Virus record (IMG/VR): IMGVR_UViG_2778261530_000005
DNA: 44,441 nt
Source of the DNA: a virus
Lineage: Duplodnaviria > Heunggongvirae > Uroviricota > Caudoviricetes
Reading direction: 5' to 3' (one strand)
The notes under the pieces were generated by a model, which was given only the letters and a program-made list of their open reading frames with translations, was not told the origin of the DNA and did not search any database. Both the position numbers and the translations under genes were made by a program. Every line of letters begins with the position of its first letter. Position 1 is the first letter of the stretch. Below are positions 7,697 to 17,705 of this stretch, piece by piece.

Positions 7697-8091
7697 AATT
7701 ATCTCCATTTTTACAAATGAATTTTGTCGATGCGGTGCCTGGTGCCTCCAGGTGACGTTAACCAGTTAACAATTAACGCCGGATAATCCACCCATAACAC
7801 TGATGCTTTTAACTGTGCCGCGTGCGCTTAGCCGCATTCACCGCATCACAAAATTCACTTTAAAAAGGGGCGGCAGGGCAGCCACGGAGTAGAACTGATG
7901 CCGCCAAAGACTAGACACAGCAATGTCGTTATTTACAACCGGAGGCGCACTCCCACCATTTAAATTTAACAGACAAGACCGACTCTTTATGAATACCGGA
8001 AATGCGCCTTCGTGTTGTGCGCCTGTCTTTTTACCACTTCAGGCTCGGTGGTATACTGGAGTTCTCACACAACCAGTAATAAGGTATTCCT

Positions 8092-8718: not shown

Positions 8719-9180
8719 CTACTGGTTACGTTTCTTTAGTGCCAGCATGTTCTCGAAGGCTTCCTCGTAGAGCTTGTTTAGTCCACGTAGCTGGTTAAGG
8801 AGTTTGGCTTTTTCTGACGCAGGTAGAATCTCGAAGAGGTTAAGTAACTCTGCCTGTTCTTCATTGACCAGCCTCCATCCGTTGCCTGAAAAACTATCAT
8901 CATAAGTATCTGATGATCTTACATAATTCATTAAGTCTTTAAGGTCTTCTCGAATGTCCTCTGGTTTTACCTTTAACAGAACCGCAAATTTTAGCGCAGC
9001 GTCGGTATTTACCGGTATCTTGCCGTTCAGATACTGGCTAACGGTGCCTTGAGATTCGAATCCCAACAACTCAGCCGCCAGCTCTTGAGTCAGCTTCAGC
9101 TCTTTTTTTCTTGCATTCCATGCGGCTTTTAAATTCTTGCTCGCTTCTGGAGTTGCAATCACTTCGCGTGTTTTTTTCAT
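8719..9180 (-). CDS. Prophage repressor (HTH, RacR-like; no LexA-type peptidase domain)
   Basis: 153 aa with helix-turn-helix (LTQELAAELLGFESQGTVSQYLNGK), divergent from the cro-like gene across an operator-containing intergenic region. Confidence 0.7.
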   Translation of the reverse strand: MKKTREVIATPEASKNLKAAWNARKKELKLTQELAAELLGFESQGTVSQYLNGKIPVNTDAALKFAVLLKVKPEDIREDLKDLMNYVRSSDTYDDSFSGNGWRLVNEEQAELLNLFEILPASEKAKLLNQLRGLNKLYEEAFENMLALKKRNQ

Positions 9181-9186
9181 ACATAG

Positions 9187-9214
9187 AGTTTATTTGTTTT
9201 ACCAATATTATCAA
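9187..9214 (-). promoter_or_regulatory. Candidate repressor-maintenance promoter giving a near-leaderless transcript
   Basis: On the minus strand TTGATA (-35), 16-bp spacer, TAAACT (-10), ending 6 nt before the repressor ATG. Confidence 0.35.
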
Positions 9215-9216
9215 AG

Positions 9217-9255
9217 ATAGTCTGACTATTGATCTTTAAAATTAGCGGAGCTAAT
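9217..9255. promoter_or_regulatory. Two perfect palindromes, candidate operators
   Basis: ATAGTCTGACTAT (9217-9229) and ATTAGCGGAGCTAAT (9241-9255), overlapping the -35 and -10 of the divergent promoters. Confidence 0.4.
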
Positions 9256-9257
9256 AT
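9229..9257 (+). promoter_or_regulatory. Candidate PR-like promoter for the cro-like operon
   Basis: TTGATC (-35, 9229-9234), 17-bp spacer, TAATAT (-10, 9252-9257), about 30 bp upstream of the cro-like ATG. Confidence 0.45.
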
Positions 9258-9287
9258 TTGCTCGAGGCATAACGTAGAAGGTTGGCT

Positions 9288-9563
9288 ATGAACTTAAGAG
9301 ACTATTTAAAAGAGAAACATATCACCCAGCTACAGTTTGGGAAGCTAACGGGTTTATCTCAGGTGCATGTAAGTCGAGTGCTGGGGGGCTATGAAAGATT
9401 CAGCCCTGAAAAAGCATTACGTGTTGCTGAAGTAACGAATTTCGAGGTTACACCTCATGAACTCCGGCCTGATATCTACCCGAATCCGACCGATGGTTTA
9501 CCTGTTGGATGTAAGGCTAACACACAAAATGCACAGGAGTTGATTCATGAAAATCAGGCATGA
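9288..9563 (+). CDS. Cro/YdaS-like HTH regulator
   Basis: 91 aa from MNLRDYLKEKHITQLQFGKLTGLSQVHVSRVL…; HTH; first gene of the rightward early operon; GAAGG ribosome-binding site. Confidence 0.6.
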   Translation: MNLRDYLKEKHITQLQFGKLTGLSQVHVSRVLGGYERFSPEKALRVAEVTNFEVTPHELRPDIYPNPTDGLPVGCKANTQNAQELIHENQA

Positions 9564-9969
9564 GCACATCGAATCAGTGCTGTTAGCCCTGGCCGCTGAA
9601 AAAGGGCAGGCATGGGTAGCCAATGCAATTACTGAAGAATATCTGCGCCAGGGGGGCGGCGAATTGCCCTTGGTACCAGGCAAGGACTGGAATAATCAGC
9701 AGAACATCTATCACCGTTGGTTAAAAGGTGAAACGAAAGCGCAAAGGGAAAAAATTCAGACACTGATCCCTGCGGTTCTGGCAATTCTTCCGCGCGAGCT
9801 GCGTCACCGACTCTGCATCTTCGATACCCTGGAACGCCGTGCATTACTGGCGGCGCAGGAAGCGTTGAGTACGGCAATTGATGCGCATGATGATGCAGTC
9901 CAGGCCGTTTACCGGAAAGCACATTTCAGCGGTGGTGGGTCGCCCGGTGATTCTGTCGTAGTGCATTGA
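9547..9969 (+). CDS. YdaT-like protein (putative toxic partner of the YdaS-like protein)
   Basis: 140 aa, same length and position as Rac YdaT; overlaps the cro-like gene. Confidence 0.5.
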   Translation: MKIRHEHIESVLLALAAEKGQAWVANAITEEYLRQGGGELPLVPGKDWNNQQNIYHRWLKGETKAQREKIQTLIPAVLAILPRELRHRLCIFDTLERRALLAAQEALSTAIDAHDDAVQAVYRKAHFSGGGSPGDSVVVH

Positions 9970-10046
9970 TTGAAATTAATCGTGCCGGATTGTTTTGTTC
10001 GGTATCAGTTAAATGTAACGCTGCGAGCGTTACAAGGTGAAAACAA

Positions 10047-10835
10047 ATGGCTTCAAACTGGATAAAGCTCGAGGTTATTACGCCGGATAAGCCGGAAATA
10101 TTCAGGCTTGCTGAGATTCTGAATATTGATCCAGATGCCGCATTAGGGAAGGTTATTCGCTTCTGGGCATGGGCGGATCAACAAATGATAGACGGTAATG
10201 CAGATTGTAACGCTCGCGGCGTTACAAAAAGTGCAATAGATCGCATCACTTTTATGGCTGGTTTTGCTGATGCGTTAATTCAGGTTGGATGGCTGGTCGA
10301 AAATGACGTTGGGCTTTCTCTACCTAACTTTGAACGCCATAACGGAAAAAGCTCTAAAAAACGGGCGGTTACAAACGAGCGAGTTACAAAAATACGTGAA
10401 CTGAAACGAAAAGGTAACGCTGCCGGCGTTACACAAACGGATCAAAAAGCGTTACCAGAGGAAGAGGAAGAGGAAGATCTAAATACTGATCTCCCCCTAA
10501 ATCCCCCTCGCCAAAAACGAGCGTCTAAAAAATTCGAGCCGGAGGCTATTGAGCTGCCCGATTGGTTGCCGGAAACACTCTGGCATGAGTGGGTCCGGTT
10601 CAGACAGGCATTGCGAAAACCGATTCGAACGGAGCAGGGCGCTAACGGGGCGATACGGGAACTGGAAAAATTCCGTCAGCAGGGTTTTACACCTGAGCAG
10701 GTGATTCGACACAGCATCGCCAATGAATACCAGGGCCTGTTCGCGCCGAAAGGTGTTCGGCCTGAGACGTTGCTCCGACAGGTTAACACCGTCTCCTTGC
10801 CGGACAGTGCGATCCCGCCAGGCTTCAGGGGGTAA
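10047..10835 (+). CDS. Replication initiation / replisome-organiser protein (YdaU-like)
   Basis: 262 aa directly upstream of the DnaC-like loader; acidic linker (EEEEEEDL). Confidence 0.5.
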   Translation: MASNWIKLEVITPDKPEIFRLAEILNIDPDAALGKVIRFWAWADQQMIDGNADCNARGVTKSAIDRITFMAGFADALIQVGWLVENDVGLSLPNFERHNGKSSKKRAVTNERVTKIRELKRKGNAAGVTQTDQKALPEEEEEEDLNTDLPLNPPRQKRASKKFEPEAIELPDWLPETLWHEWVRFRQALRKPIRTEQGANGAIRELEKFRQQGFTPEQVIRHSIANEYQGLFAPKGVRPETLLRQVNTVSLPDSAIPPGFRG

Positions 10836-10841
10836 CAGACC

Positions 10842-11588
10842 ATGAAAAATATTGCGACAGGCGGCGTTCTGGAGCGTATCCGCAGACTGGCCCCACCACA
10901 TGTAACCGCCCCATTCAGAACGGTTGCGGAGTGGCGCGAGTGGCAACTTGCTGAAGGCCAGAAACGTAGCGAGGAGATCAACCGCCTGAATCGTCAGTTG
11001 CGGGTGGAAAAAATTCTGAATCGCTCAGGCATCCAGCCGTTGCACCGTAAATGCTCGTTTGCGAATTACCAGGTGCAGAACGACGGCCAGCGATACGCGT
11101 TAAGCCAGGCGAAATCCATCGCCGATGAACTGATGACCGGGTGTACAAATTTTGCGTTCAGCGGAAAACCTGGTACCGGGAAGAATCACTTAGCGGCAGC
11201 TATCGGGAATCGCCTGCTGAAAGACGGTCAGACAGTGATTGTGGTTACCGTGGCTGATGTCATGAGTGCTCTACACGCCAGCTATGACGACGGGCAATCA
11301 GGCGAAAAATTTTTGCGGGAACTGTGCCAAGTGGATCTGCTGGTTCTTGATGAAATTGGCATTCAGCGCGAGACAAAAAACGAGCAGGTGGTGCTGCACC
11401 AGATTGTTGATCGCCGGACAGCGTCGATGCGCAGCGTGGGGATGCTGACAAACCTGAACTATGAGGCCATGAAAACATTGCTCGGCGAGAGGATTATGGA
11501 TCGCATGACCATGAACGGCGGGCGATGGGTGAATTTTAACTGGGAGAGCTGGCGTCCGAATGTCGTCCAGCCAGGAATTGCGAAGTGA
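10842..11588 (+). CDS. DnaC-like helicase loader (IstB-type AAA+ ATPase)
   Basis: Walker [16 protein letters not shown] and Walker B LLVLDEIG. Confidence 0.8.
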
Positions 11589-11610
11589 TTTTTACCGGGA
11601 GGAAATTTTA

Positions 11611-12372
11611 ATGGAAACCGTTTTTGATGCACTGAAAGCAATGGGAAAAGCCACGTCGGTAGAACTGGCTGCGCGACTTGATATCAGTCGTGAAGAAGTG
11701 CTGAACGAGCTGTGGGAACTGAAAAAGGCTGGATTCGTTGATAAAAGCGTATACACCTGGCGTGTGGCCGATAACAACGTTCAGCAGGAACATCCAGTGC
11801 CGGAAGAACAGCCGGAAGAAATCGCCACGGCAACAGTGACGAAAATATCGGAGTGCGATTTAACCGCGACGATTGAACAACGTGGTCCACTAACTGCGGA
11901 TGAACTGGCTACGTTGTTCGGTACCACATCACGCAAAGTGGCTTCAACGCTGGCAATGGCAATCAGCAAGGGGCGTCTGATTCGCGTAAATCAGAACGGT
12001 AAATTTCGTTACTGCATACCAGGTGATAATTTACCAGCAGAGCCGAAAGTTGAATCGGTAGCGGAAACCGATGGTAAAGCCTTTCCTCAGCCAGCCGGTG
12101 TTGCGTTACCGGTACAGAAAGATGCAACACAGGAAGATATTAAAACAGAAACTGTGGCGGACATTGTGCAGTCGTTGCCATCGTTTACCGAAACGCGTGC
12201 GAATGACCTGATTTTACCATCACTGCATCTGGCAAACCGCGAACTGCGTCGGGCGAAAAATCATGTCCAGAAGTGGGAGCGTGTCTGCGCCGCGCTGCGG
12301 GAGCTGAACAAGCACCGGGATATTGTTCGACAGATTACTGATTCTTCCCGCAGTGTTGCATCGGAAAAGTGA
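11611..12372 (+). CDS. Hypothetical protein with winged-helix-like N-terminus
   Basis: 253 aa from [13 protein letters not shown]… with GGGAGG ribosome-binding site; the track's upstream extension overlaps the dnaC-like gene. Confidence 0.45.
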
Positions 12373-12387
12373 TTACCGGAGGCGCTT

Positions 12388-12807
12388 ATGGCAAAAGTAT
12401 TTACACAAGAAGAGCGGGAAAAAATTAAAGGGCAGGTTGTTGAACTCGTACGCCAGAGTGGGCGCGAGACGTTACGACAACTGGAAGCTAAAACCGGGGC
12501 GACAAGATATTTAATAAGCGTTCTTGCCAGAGACCTGGTTGCCAGTGGGGATGTATACAACTCTGGCTACGGGTTATTCCCGTCAGAACAGGCTCGTAAG
12601 GACTGGCAAAACGCCCGCAAAAAACTCTCGAGGGCAAAGCTGAAGAAAACATCTGCGGTTGATCCGGACCTTATCTGGTCGTTACCAGACGGAGAAATAC
12701 GCCGCTACGACAGGCGTCAGAACATAATCTGTCGCGAGTGCCGGAGAAGTGAAGTTATGCAGCGAGTTTTGATGTTTTACAGGGGTAATAACGGAGCAAC
12801 GATATGA
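12388..12807 (+). CDS. Hypothetical phage protein
   Basis: 139-aa ORF in operon context; C-terminal CxxC pair (CRECRRSE). Confidence 0.45.
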   Translation: MAKVFTQEEREKIKGQVVELVRQSGRETLRQLEAKTGATRYLISVLARDLVASGDVYNSGYGLFPSEQARKDWQNARKKLSRAKLKKTSAVDPDLIWSLPDGEIRRYDRRQNIICRECRRSEVMQRVLMFYRGNNGATI

Positions 12808-13103
12808 GGGTTTATATCGCAGGGCCGATGACCGGGTATAAAAATTTCAACCGTGAGGCATTTCACGAGGCGGAAGAGAAGCTGAAACAGAAAGGGTGCA
12901 CGGTGTTGAATCCGGCAGTGCTTCCCGATGGGCTGACACAGGCGCAGTACATGGATATTTGTACTGCGATGCTCCGCTGTGTGGATACGATTTACATGCT
13001 GAAAGGCTGGCATCGGTCGGCAGGCGCTAAGGCAGAACTGGCGCTGGCGGCGAAACTGGGGCATGAGGTTGTATTTCTGGAGGCAACCAGTGAGCGAGAT
13101 TAA
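12804..13103 (+). CDS. Nucleoside 2-deoxyribosyltransferase-like (DUF4406-type) protein
   Basis: 99 aa beginning MRVYIAGPMTGY…, the characteristic N-terminal motif of this fold; start overlaps previous stop. Confidence 0.55.
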   Translation: MRVYIAGPMTGYKNFNREAFHEAEEKLKQKGCTVLNPAVLPDGLTQAQYMDICTAMLRCVDTIYMLKGWHRSAGAKAELALAAKLGHEVVFLEATSERD

Positions 13104-13677
13104 CTATCAGGCTCTGCGTGAGGCGGCAGAAGCAATAAAAATAGCAGCCACACCACAAAAATTGCTGGCATTTCGTATGAAGGTCACACCTCAGGTTGTG
13201 CTGGCACTGCTGGATGAACGGGAAAGAAACCAGCAATACATAAAACGCCGCGATCAGGAGAACGAGGAAATTGCGCTAACGGTAGGGAAGCTGCGTGTTG
13301 AGCTTGAAGCAGAAAAATCAAAACTCAACGAGCAGCGTGAGTATTACGAGGGAGTAATCGCGGATGGAAGTAAGCGCATAGCAGAACTGGAAGCACGGGA
13401 AATAAAACCAGCCAAAGGCGAAGTTCTTGTCGTTGTATCTGGTTTTACTGGTTGCGGGAAAAGCGCCATTGCCGGGGAAATAGAAATTGCGATGAAAGCT
13501 ATTGGTGTGCCGGTTCTATGGACTAATGGCGATGCGGAAAAGCGCATGACAGGAGCTGACTGGCTGACAGCGATTGAGATGTACAAACCAACTGTGCGCA
13601 TCGTGGAAGTTAATGTGCCACGCGCCGCTGGCATTCGCATCAAAGGAGAGGAGCATGCAAATAAAACCAGAAGATGA
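13090..13677 (+). CDS. Hypothetical protein: coiled-coil N-terminus and P-loop-like C-terminus
   Basis: About 195 aa from a GTG overlapping the preceding stop; heptad-rich central region; GFTGCGKS resembles a Walker A motif. Confidence 0.45.
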   Translation: MSEINYQALREAAEAIKIAATPQKLLAFRMKVTPQVVLALLDERERNQQYIKRRDQENEEIALTVGKLRVELEAEKSKLNEQREYYEGVIADGSKRIAELEAREIKPAKGEVLVVVSGFTGCGKSAIAGEIEIAMKAIGVPVLWTNGDAEKRMTGADWLTAIEMYKPTVRIVEVNVPRAAGIRIKGEEHANKTRR

Positions 13678-14011
13678 GTTAAGTAATATTGTTTTATTTC
13701 CGGTAAAGGAGGATGACCCACGTAATCAGGTTAATTTTCTTTATGAGCCATCGGAAAGGCCATACTGCTATCACGCTTCTGTCCGGGTTGACGAAAAAGA
13801 GCGTCAGGTCCGCTGTAAAATCTGCGGTGCAGTTGTGGAGCCGTTTGACTGGATGCTCTCAGTGGCGAAAAGAGAAACCAGACTGGCAGATGATGTAAGG
13901 CTATTGCGCCAGGAAGAACAGGAAAGGCGGAAAAATATAGAAAAGTTAATTCAGATTGAGCGTAACGCGAAAGCGCGGATACGCAGGGCGACAAAAGCCA
14001 CGACTGAATAA
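13655..14011 (+). CDS. Hypothetical Cys-pair (zinc-ribbon-like) protein
   Basis: 118 aa from MQIKPEDELSNIV…; CYH…CKICG motif; basic C-terminus. Confidence 0.4.
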   Translation: MQIKPEDELSNIVLFPVKEDDPRNQVNFLYEPSERPYCYHASVRVDEKERQVRCKICGAVVEPFDWMLSVAKRETRLADDVRLLRQEEQERRKNIEKLIQIERNAKARIRRATKATTE

Positions 14012-14103
14012 TTAAATTTAGCACTATAAAAAATTTAATCCTTAACCGGAGGGATTCCAGCACTCTCAGAACATCAGGAGGCCGCCTGAAAGGGCGGTAA
14101 TTA

Positions 14104-14322
14104 ATGGTCACATTATTTAGAAAAAAATATCCGCGAAAGAGTAGAACAACAGAATTTCTGTTTCTCATTCTGTTTATCGTGTTGATGATACCGATATCCC
14201 CGCTATTACTGGTCTGGTTTATCGGGAAAATAATTGAGCCCGTTATTGAATTGTATAACGACGTGGTATGGGCGTCATTCAACACACTGCACAATAAAAT
14301 TAATCCGTATAAGGAAAGCTGA
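14104..14322 (+). CDS. Small hydrophobic protein, possible membrane protein
   Basis: 72-aa ORF with a single long hydrophobic segment; ends just before the HNH gene start. Confidence 0.25.
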   Translation: MVTLFRKKYPRKSRTTEFLFLILFIVLMIPISPLLLVWFIGKIIEPVIELYNDVVWASFNTLHNKINPYKES

Positions 14323-14323
14323 T

Positions 14324-14689
14324 ATGGCACTGACGAAAAAACAACGCGCAGAACTGCGCATGAAGTTCGGTGGTCGCTGTGCTTATTGCGGCTGTGAACT
14401 TGGCGAAAAGTGGCATGCAGACCATGTAAAACCGGTCATTCGTTTTGCTGGAAATATGCTTCACCAGGAACGTGACGATATATCCAACATGGTTCCGGCA
14501 TGCCACCCATGCAATCTGCACAAGCATTGCAGTAGTCTGGAAGATTATCGGCGAATTATCAGTGATGGTCGTCGTGAATTCCTTGCGTCCGGGAAAGGCA
14601 AAGCGCTGGTTCGTATGGGATTGGTTGAAATGAAATCTGACCCGGTTGTGTTCTGGTTTGAAAAATATCAAGAAGGGGCTACGGCATGA
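14324..14689 (+). CDS. HNH endonuclease
   Basis: 121 aa from MALTKKQRAEL…; CAYCGC…HADHVKP…CHPCN is a classic HNH/zinc-finger signature. Confidence 0.7.
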   Translation: MALTKKQRAELRMKFGGRCAYCGCELGEKWHADHVKPVIRFAGNMLHQERDDISNMVPACHPCNLHKHCSSLEDYRRIISDGRREFLASGKGKALVRMGLVEMKSDPVVFWFEKYQEGATA

Positions 14690-15066
14690 TCACTATTACC
14701 AAAGAGCGACTGCAATGGCTGGCTAACATTTCTGGCCGCGATGACATTGACGATATAGACGGCGGTGAAATTCGTGAACTGGCGCTTATCGCACTGGCAT
14801 CGCTGGAGGCAGAGCCGGTTGGTGAGTTTTATGAATACAAACCGGGTGACTGGTATCAGCGTTCGGTCGGGGATAAAGCGCCAAAGTGGGTGCCGTTATA
14901 TGCAGCTCCACCAGCACCTGGCAACCAGGTTGGCGAATTAACAATGTGGGTTAAACGACTGGTCAGTCAACTGAAAAAAGCTAATCCAGACTGCAAATTA
15001 CCGGAGAAGGCGATGGACTACCTGAAGCGGAACGAACTGATAAGCGCGGAGGATGTTTTGCGATGA
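14686..15066 (+). CDS. Hypothetical phage protein
   Basis: 126-aa ORF, start overlapping the HNH stop. Confidence 0.45.
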   Translation: MITITKERLQWLANISGRDDIDDIDGGEIRELALIALASLEAEPVGEFYEYKPGDWYQRSVGDKAPKWVPLYAAPPAPGNQVGELTMWVKRLVSQLKKANPDCKLPEKAMDYLKRNELISAEDVLR

Positions 15067-15146
15067 CTTGGCCTGAAGCATTCACAACGGCAGGAATCGC
15101 AATGGCGGTGGCGCTGGTGGTGTATTCGATTTGCCGCTGGGGATAA
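15063..15146 (+). CDS. Candidate 27-aa hydrophobic micropeptide
   Basis: Hand-translated MTWPEAFTTAGIAMAVALVVYSICRWG; ATG overlaps the preceding stop (ATGA); below ORF-track cutoff. Confidence 0.2.
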   Translation: MTWPEAFTTAGIAMAVALVVYSICRWG

Positions 15147-15356
15147 AAACGGTTTGCGGGAAAAGGGGAGTTAAGTAAAATTGCTGCGGGTGCTTGAGGC
15201 TGTCTGCCTCGGGCATGCCACTGTAAGGCAGACAGAGAAAAGCCCCGGTTAACATTACGCGTCCTGCAAGACGCTTAACATTAATCTGAGGCCATATCTA
15301 TGCTCTACACACATAGGTTAGCCTCTTACGTGCCGAAAGGCAAGGAGAAGCAGGCT

Positions 15357-15512
15357 ATGAAGCAGCAAAAGGCGATGTTAATCGCCCTGATCGTCATCTG
15401 TTTAACCGTCATAGTGACGGTACTGGTAACGAGGAAAGACCTTTGCGAGGTACGAATCCGAACCGGCCAGACGGAGGTCGCTGTCTTCACAGCTTACGAA
15501 CCTGAGGAGTAA
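15357..15512 (+). CDS. Hok/Gef-family type I toxin (HokD/RelF-like)
   Basis: 51 aa MKQQKAMLIALIVICLTVIVTVLVTRKDLCEVRIRTGQTEVAVFTAYEPEE: single transmembrane helix plus conserved Hok C-terminus; AAGGAG ribosome-binding site. Confidence 0.75.
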   Translation: MKQQKAMLIALIVICLTVIVTVLVTRKDLCEVRIRTGQTEVAVFTAYEPEE

Positions 15513-15579
15513 GAGACCAGGCGGGGTAAACCCCCGCCACCTCTGATGTGTCAGGCATCCTCAACGCACCCGCACTTAA

Positions 15580-17435: not shown

Positions 17436-17461
17436 CTCAATCTGTTATCCGGGGCTATATT
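17432..17461 (+). promoter_or_regulatory. Candidate late promoter PR'
   Basis: TTGACT (17432-17437, overlapping the Q stop codon), 18-bp spacer, TATATT (17456-17461). Confidence 0.55.
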
Positions 17462-17522
17462 CCTCACGCGCCAGCAAAATCTGGCGTCGGGATTGGCGTC
17501 CTGGATAGAGACCGCGACAGAT

Positions 17523-17548
17523 ACACGCCGCGAGCGTGTTTTTTATTG
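17523..17548 (+). terminator. Candidate tR' terminator, about 60-80 nt downstream of PR'
   Basis: ACACGC-CGCGA-GCGTGT hairpin followed by TTTTTTATT. Confidence 0.55.
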
Positions 17549-17705
17549 TCGTATGCACGCGCACATCTGAATTATGGTGGGCTGTGTGGGGGCGGAGAGA
17601 TCCGCGCCGGTCGGTTTCCCGGTTACGCCAACCCTGCACAGTTCACCACCAGATGATTGGCGTCGTCGGTGGTGAGTTATTAAGAAACCACCAGAGGGCG
17701 TCATT

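Follow-up and report, generated by a model that had tools for sequence, protein, structure and literature searches.

Do the four small, overlapping genes at positions 12388-14011 of the virus record IMGVR_UViG_2778261530_000005 (Caudoviricetes) work together, or do they only lie side by side? The record, analysed here over its whole length of 44,441 nucleotides (the window), is 100% identical to DNA in the chromosomes of Escherichia coli BCE049 and MFDS1022581 and is a Rac-family lambdoid prophage of E. coli. An original prediction, made from the letters alone, had described the four open reading frames (ORFs) as an early-region cluster of the kind that often encodes anti-defence or nucleotide-modifying functions. 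We find that ORF1-ORF4 do not co-vary as a unit, and we consider it highly likely that they are four separately mobile accessory genes, set in the mosaic ren/nin/ea-type region of the early rightward operon, that make up no functional system. The genes are:

12388-12807, + strand: ORF1, 139 amino acids, basic (isoelectric point 10), its N-terminus winged-helix-like, its C-terminus marked by the conserved motif NIICRECRRSEVMQRVLMFY.
12804-13103, + strand: ORF2, 99 amino acids, beginning MRVYIAGPMTGY, a full-length DUF4406 domain.
13090-13677, + strand: ORF3, 195 amino acids; a short N-terminal segment and a long coiled coil (residues 1 to about 102), a linker, then a domain at the C-terminus (CTD).
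13655-14011, + strand: ORF4, ATG start, 118 amino acids, phrog_1621 (1.1e-55).

The evidence that carries this view is the distribution of the four genes. A megablast search of 5,426 complete E. coli genomes found ORF1 (DUF977) in 4023 of them, ORF4 in 1679, the CTD of ORF3 in 365 (with 81 places on plasmids) and ORF2 (DUF4406) in 255; the entire four-gene block, at a coverage of at least 80%, was present in 59. Three sets of IMG/VR loci, each anchored on one gene, had the following contents:

DUF4406-anchored loci (80): DUF977 in 69, DUF4406 in 80, CTD in 12, ORF4 in 35, Ea22 N-terminus in 5.
ORF4-anchored loci (79): DUF977 in 68, DUF4406 in 19, CTD in 5, ORF4 in 79, Ea22 N-terminus in 14.
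CTD-anchored loci (80): DUF977 in 7, DUF4406 in 3, CTD in 80, ORF4 in 6, Ea22 N-terminus in 65.

Elsewhere, a Klebsiella phage has ORF4 after NinG, and Tyrion and the Shiga toxin (Stx) phage ArgO145 have it after Ea22-like genes; the early region of ArgO145 sets Ea22-like, ORF4, DUF4014 and HNH genes beside ssb and other accessory genes. An obligate partnership of ORF4 with the CTD or with Ea22-like genes was rejected, ORF4 being present in 6 of the 80 CTD-anchored loci and standing after NinG as well. The overall distribution is that of normal lambdoid mosaicism, in which small accessory genes, swapped at gene boundaries, form a variable string behind a near-universal DUF977 gene. The expectation that the genes act as a cluster fails on this point: what we find are widespread proteins that do not come and go together. 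A comparison with the PADLOC defence models gave no meaningful match, and neither did NCBIfam. In the Rac prophage of E. coli K-12, ORF1-ORF4 are absent and the segment after ydaW is deleted. The operon there (L263, 1422752-1423644) stops at ydaW and is followed by rzpR; the prototype Rac has therefore deleted the whole accessory block.

We propose that the operon runs from the cro-like ydaS through ydaT, the O-like gene and the DnaC-like gene into the accessory genes, with ORF1-ORF4 probably occupying the slot of lambda ren and the nin genes. Gene-boundary recombination, the source of lambdoid mosaicism, would have made the four genes neighbours, and they would be co-transcribed and probably translationally coupled.

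The layout itself was read correctly at the outset. Four same-strand (+) ORFs fill 12388-14011, with an identical annotation by the Prokaryotic Genome Annotation Pipeline (PGAP) in NZ_CP042250, where they are named, in order, 'DUF977 family protein', 'DUF4406 domain-containing protein', 'ead/Ea22-like family protein' and 'hypothetical protein'. The PGAP starts are the ones we favour (ATG 12388, ATG 12804, GTG 13090 and ATG 13655). Consecutive ORFs overlap by 4 (ATGA), 14 and 23 nucleotides and a Shine-Dalgarno-like site stands at each of the four starts, so the translational coupling originally predicted is plausible. On the + strand, no sigma-70-like promoter or intrinsic terminator was predicted from about 9000 to 15275, and the first terminator-like site is at 15578. 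Rfam and tRNA scans of 12388-14011 returned no Rfam family and no tRNA. ORF1-ORF4 are genuine genes and not chance ORFs, because hundreds to thousands of genomes carry close homologues and distant homologues keep the same motifs. The region is ordinary, all four genes being already annotated in RefSeq, and the CTD of ORF3 is its single unusual element.

ORF3 most likely starts at GTG 13090, because GGAGG lies 6 nucleotides upstream and the resulting protein has the family N-terminus MSEINYQ; the alternative, mechanically called ATG at 13063 gives an ORF3 of 204 amino acids. Residues 2-101 match Pfam Ead_Ea22 (PF13935; 1.6e-26, 93.9 bits, cut-off 27), and the protein matches phrog_250 (7e-70). 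A single-sequence AlphaFold2 model, good for the coiled coil only, gives one helix over residues 34-102, with block values of the predicted local distance difference test (pLDDT) of 90-96 over residues 41-80. In published work, Ea22 begins with a short N-terminus, continues as a coiled coil and ends in a CTD that is variable and portable; it is tetrameric and has a pro-lysogenic effect (PMC10834534). ORF3 shares with lambda Ea22 and P22 Ead the same N-terminal segment, the long coiled coil and a separate CTD. However, its gene sits in the rightward operon, past the replication genes, whereas Ea22 and Ead belong to the exo-xis (leftward early) region, and its CTD has no relation either to the solved lambda Ea22 CTD or to the DUF551 CTD that one Stx-phage variant carries. 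This CTD is also better conserved than the rest of ORF3. ORF3 would be an oligomeric scaffold of the Ea22 type, built on a coiled coil and displaying a CTD that can be exchanged, of which the relevant parts are:

13405-13629, + strand: CTD of ORF3 (residues 106-180), a mobile P-loop-like mini-domain of about 70 amino acids.
13441-13464, + strand: GFTGCGKS motif, ORF3 residues 118-125 of 195, at the start of the CTD.

The original prediction had a coiled-coil protein ending in GFTGCGKS; the coiled coil and the Walker-A-like character of the motif stand, but the motif opens the CTD instead of closing the protein. The domain has a wide range of its own. A search of 1.84 billion representatives retrieved 439 clusters at 50% identity, 345 of them with E<=1e-10. 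The domain is present in Enterobacterales, Burkholderiales and Alphaproteobacteria, at times as a stand-alone protein of 87 amino acids, and also in phages phiV10, D6, JL22, BcepC6B (gp37) and the jumbo phage RSL2 (ORF127). Of 146 representatives, 129 have it at the C-terminus, 12 at the N-terminus and 5 in the interior. Its fusion partners are mostly unassigned sequence, together with Ea22-type N-termini (27 of 127), Lar-like zinc fingers (2) and DUF4406 (1). Further loci that carry the CTD are:

L262, 1917-2516: CTD.
L261, 994-2136: CTD.
L173, 3989-4252: CTD in an 87-amino-acid ORF.

The invariant residues of the CTD form the patterns G-x-[T]-G-x-G-K-S-A-x-x-G-E-I-E, E-K-x-x-T and P-x-V, and they include a Glu close to where the last strand ends; almost as constant are D-W, Y and N. 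A Walker A motif, GxxxxGK[ST], follows a hydrophobic strand (VLVVVSGFTGCGKS), and its G, G, K and S are (nearly) invariant in 127 representatives. Pfam and NCBIfam searches yielded no model that covers the domain. The matches that do occur fall below the cut-offs: among 19 diverse members, 16 match APS_kinase and AAA_16, 14 match AAA_18 and fewer match further P-loop families, and in the alignments inspected the APS_kinase and AAA_16 matches cover the strand, P-loop and helix (beta1-P-loop-alpha1). The best Pfam match in the family is to APS_kinase (3.6e-4, under its cut-off), with the ORF3 of the window itself at 0.016-0.058. A PDB profile search with the CTD gave mainly weak matches to P-loop proteins (UvrA, a designed ATPase, gluconate kinase and a 'phosphate-loop protein'; best E=0.02). 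Because the matches to P-loop families are weak and sub-threshold, we call the CTD P-loop-like and not a P-loop nucleoside triphosphatase (NTPase). Like the APS, gluconate and shikimate kinases and designed mini-proteins, it has a predicted hydrophobic strand, GxxGxGKS and a helix, and the weak but recurrent matches fall within the first 40 or so positions of those models. In contrast to them, it has about 70 residues, three predicted strands and no curated family, and its motifs GEIEI, EKxxTxADW and PxVxIVE are without counterpart in those families. We would describe it as a beta-alpha-beta-alpha-beta module of about 70 residues whose P-loop probably binds a phosphate-bearing ligand. A literature search combining Ea22 and P-loop returned nothing relevant, and no paper characterising the CTD was found.

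An alternative for this domain is that the CTD is a catalytically active minimal P-loop NTPase or kinase in which GxTGxGKS serves as Walker A and the invariant Glu that ends the third strand (IVE) as Walker B. The invariance of the Walker A consensus across the 127 representatives is what such an enzyme would show, and so are the predicted order of beta-loop-alpha-beta-alpha-beta, the location of the APS_kinase and AAA_16 matches of 16 of the 19 members at the P-loop end of those models, the near-exclusive recovery of P-loop proteins, a designed mini-ATPase included, by the PDB profile, and the label 'ATP-binding protein' that one source gives to a CTD member. However, every match lies below curated thresholds and spans only about 40 residues, every known P-loop NTPase is more than twice as large as the CTD, and no nucleotide-base-binding or lid elements are evident, which makes an active enzyme unlikely. 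A bolder idea, which we regard as quite improbable, is that the CTD might be a natural minimal P-loop module that many unrelated phages have put on oligomeric scaffolds. There its target, a small molecule that bears a phosphate or else a very conserved factor of the host, would be bound, sequestered or hydrolysed. The carriers in question are lambdoid and epsilon15-like phages, P1-like phage-plasmids, temperate phages of Burkholderia and jumbo phages of Ralstonia, and a nucleotide second messenger of host immunity may be one candidate ligand. If this were true, the CTD would represent a new class of phage domains that serve counter-defence or host takeover, and no natural P-loop protein would be smaller.

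The CTD also occurs in P0208 (L264, 4001-4993), a natural fusion of 330 amino acids that joins an unknown N-terminal region, DUF4406 and the CTD and is found on phage-like metagenomic contigs of 43-46 kb. Beyond this protein nothing hints that ORF2 and ORF3 are functionally linked, and the hint is weak because the CTD is freely fused to other modules.

ORF1, which opens the block, is best described, by remote homology and position, as a Ren-type protein. It matches Pfam DUF977 over the full model (1-134 of 134; 5.8e-30, 104.5 bits, cut-off 22.1) and phrog_142, the 'Ren-like exclusion protein' family (1.6e-46), to which lambda Ren also belongs (1.6e-41). In a BLASTP comparison of the two proteins, only the C-terminal 20 residues align (NIICRECRRSEVMQRVLMFY vs NLVFKECRQSAAMKRVLAVY, E=8e-6), with the common motif [IV]x[RK]ECRxSxxMxRVLxxY. 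In the rightward early operon both genes come shortly after the replication genes; lambda Ren follows them directly, whereas a DUF1627 gene separates them from ORF1. ORF1 differs from lambda Ren in length as well (139 vs 96 amino acids), with a DUF977-type insertion. The 139 residues agree with the original description, but instead of a C-terminal pair of CxxC motifs there is a single one (C115-REC118). A metal site at this motif was rejected: the CxxC has no second copy, and lambda Ren has Lys in place of its first Cys. Lambda Ren is said, after Toothman and Herskowitz in 1980, to give escape from Rex exclusion, a function known for lambda Ren only. By analogy, ORF1 would be a basic winged-helix protein of the Ren type that may aid escape from exclusion by a resident prophage. 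The titles and abstracts that mention DUF977 do so in passing, and no characterising study was found among them.

ORF2 is classed as a member of DUF4406, which it matches from end to end (1-91 of 91; 3.2e-36, 124.1 bits, cut-off 22). Its assignment to phrog_355, 'nucleoside 2-deoxyribosyltransferase' (1.3e-43), and the full-length DUF4406 match bear out the earlier suggestion that the 99-residue protein resembles a nucleoside 2-deoxyribosyltransferase (NDT). Sub-threshold Pfam matches are to DUF1937, DUF7768 and Nuc_deoxyrib_tr (PF05014; 19.2 bits, below its gathering cut-off of 28.8). Features in common with the NDT/DNPH1 (Rcl) superfamily are an N-terminal YxAGP motif and a C-terminal S-x-G-x3-E-L motif, and Y4, D51, S72, G74 and E78 are invariant across five homologues, down to 58% identity. 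A global alignment with the NDT of L. leichmannii (1F8X), which scores only z=1.7 above shuffles, places Y4 opposite Y7 and E78 opposite Glu98, the catalytic nucleophile. A shallow DUF4406 alignment gave no match to 1F8X with hhalign and no NDT-like entry in a PDB profile search. Unlike the L. leichmannii enzyme, which has 157 amino acids, ORF2 has 99 and is without the C-terminal tail that completes the NDT active site. It is plausibly an enzyme acting on N-glycosidic bonds, and would most likely be a minimal NDT/DNPH1-like enzyme or binder of a nucleoside or nucleotide, in which Glu78 may sit at the position of the NDT nucleophile. The literature on phage NDT enzymes concerns PF05014 proteins of diaminopurine phages; in titles and abstracts DUF4406 is mentioned in passing, with no characterised member found.

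Could ORF1 and ORF2 at least form a functional pair, a Ren-like protein working with an NDT-like one while ORF3 and ORF4 are unrelated passengers? DUF977 precedes DUF4406 in 69 of the 80 DUF4406-anchored loci and the two genes share the ATGA overlap, yet DUF977 is about 16 times commoner than DUF4406 (4023 vs 255 genomes), and the ORF4-anchored loci carry DUF977 in 68 cases and DUF4406 in only 19. In Escherichia sp. ESNIH1 (L166), moreover, the DUF4406 gene stands after unrelated small genes, with no DUF977 among the listed ORFs. The whole pattern agrees with a favoured site of insertion downstream of a gene that is nearly universal, and we give the pair little credence.

ORF4 is the zinc-ribbon-like protein that had been predicted, by virtue of its CxH…CxxC motif:

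13766-13825, + strand: zinc-ribbon-like motif C38-x-H40…C54-x-x-C57 of ORF4.

A TTG at 13574, called mechanically, is unlikely to be its start. Across five sequences of 31-44% identity, from phages of Klebsiella, Serratia, Enterobacter and Providencia, residues C38, H40, C54, C57, F64 and D65 do not vary, and the basic helix C-terminal to the ribbon motif (residues 72-118, isoelectric point 10.8) is conserved in the homologues. The invariant spacing of CxH…CxxC and weak matches to Zn_Ribbon_TF (0.0014, 18.6 bits, cut-off 29) and S27e resemble zinc-ribbon proteins of the TFIIB and S27e types, from which ORF4 differs in that one ligand is a His and in the conserved FD motif and long basic helix after the ribbon. 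We suggest that ORF4 would be a zinc-ribbon protein with a basic helix and would bind nucleic acid or a partner protein. No curated family matches ORF4, which matched only phrog_1621, and no paper characterising phrog_1621 was found. PDB sequence searches with each of ORF1-ORF4 gave nothing significant. The original verdict that none of the proteins is assignable was nevertheless too pessimistic, since three of the four pass Pfam gathering scores.

How does the reading of four separately mobile genes stand against these details? Four observations speak against it. In 69 of 80 loci DUF977 is immediately followed by DUF4406, which leaves some room for a functional pair of the two; the Ren link of ORF1 relies on PHROG remote-homology clustering and a 20-residue motif; the link of ORF2 to catalytic NDT enzymes is below the Pfam threshold and pairwise not significant (z=1.7, no hhalign match); and the DUF4406-CTD fusion P0208 hints that ORF2 and the ORF3 CTD could take part in one process. 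A single anti-defence or nucleotide-modifying module, in which, for example, ORF2 alters a nucleotide, the P-loop of ORF3 binds it and ORF1 and ORF4 target or regulate the activity, could draw on the tight overlaps within a single transcription unit, the Ren PHROG of ORF1, the NDT-like nature of ORF2 and the P0208 fusion, but it is largely refuted by the distribution and can be given very little weight indeed, for the prevalences are very different, all four genes occur together in only 59 of 5426 genomes, DUF4406 and ORF4 are present in 3 and 6 of the 80 CTD-anchored loci, the neighbours around each gene in other phages are unrelated and PADLOC offers no meaningful match. An anti-defence or nucleotide-related role is wrong for the cluster as a unit; individually it is a reasonable suggestion for ORF1, through the Ren PHROG, and for ORF2, through the N-(deoxy)ribosyltransferase/hydrolase superfamily.

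The reading of four separately mobile genes implies that early genes of a lambdoid prophage can adjoin and overlap without forming a system, and that in mosaic phage genomes adjacency is by itself weak evidence. It also leaves two leads for annotation. A link to lambda Ren can be drawn for the DUF977 proteins, which roughly three in four of the complete E. coli genomes carry, and the Ea22-type scaffold bears a highly conserved P-loop-like mini-domain, without a curated family, whose range covers phages of Alpha-, Beta- and Gammaproteobacteria.

The surrounding prophage adjoins yebY/copD in the matching E. coli chromosomes. Its gene order begins, according to PGAP, with integrase, xis, ralR, recT, recE, kilR, repressor, ydaS, ydaT, an O-like gene and ydaV (DnaC-like); DUF1627, ORF1-ORF4, DUF4014, HNH, a hypothetical gene and hokD follow, and beyond hokD come DUF1367, DUF1364, DUF1133, further small genes and the lysis and head genes. 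The block lies between the replication genes and the HNH endonuclease gene, as predicted, but shares this interval with the DUF1627 and DUF4014 genes:

10842-11588, + strand: DnaC-like gene, a replication gene upstream of DUF1627.
11611-12372, + strand: DUF1627 protein with winged helix-turn-helix units, between the DnaC-like gene and ORF1 (Pfam DUF1627 7e-96, several helix-turn-helix families, PGAP).
14104-14322, + strand: DUF4014 small membrane protein, between ORF4 and the HNH gene (PGAP).
14324-14689, + strand: HNH endonuclease (PGAP; Pfam HNH 1.5e-6; phrog_2118 8.8e-57).

The DUF1627 protein has two winged-helix-like units, one of which matches the Ren-like PHROG weakly (7.5e-5); this match suggests that DUF1627 and DUF977 may be distant paralogues. 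Downstream, the sok antitoxin RNA and the hokD toxin gene (15188-15362, +) lie upstream of the terminator-like site at 15578, and together with it they mark the end of the early accessory block.

Several RNA features were seen elsewhere in the window. The RalA antitoxin small RNA (2168-2346, +; Rfam 221 bits) adjoins the ralR toxin gene of the prophage, and the host small RNA pair SdsR/RyeB and SraC/RyeA (462-606, both strands) lies just outside its integrase end. A match to a DicF-like antisense RNA (7868-7919, -; 55 bits) falls in the leftward early region near kilR. Finally, matches to isrK and C4 antisense RNA (17455-17653, +) stand directly upstream of an ORF6N-domain (antirepressor-like) gene, an arrangement that resembles, within a lambdoid prophage, the c4-ant immunity module of the P1/P7 type.

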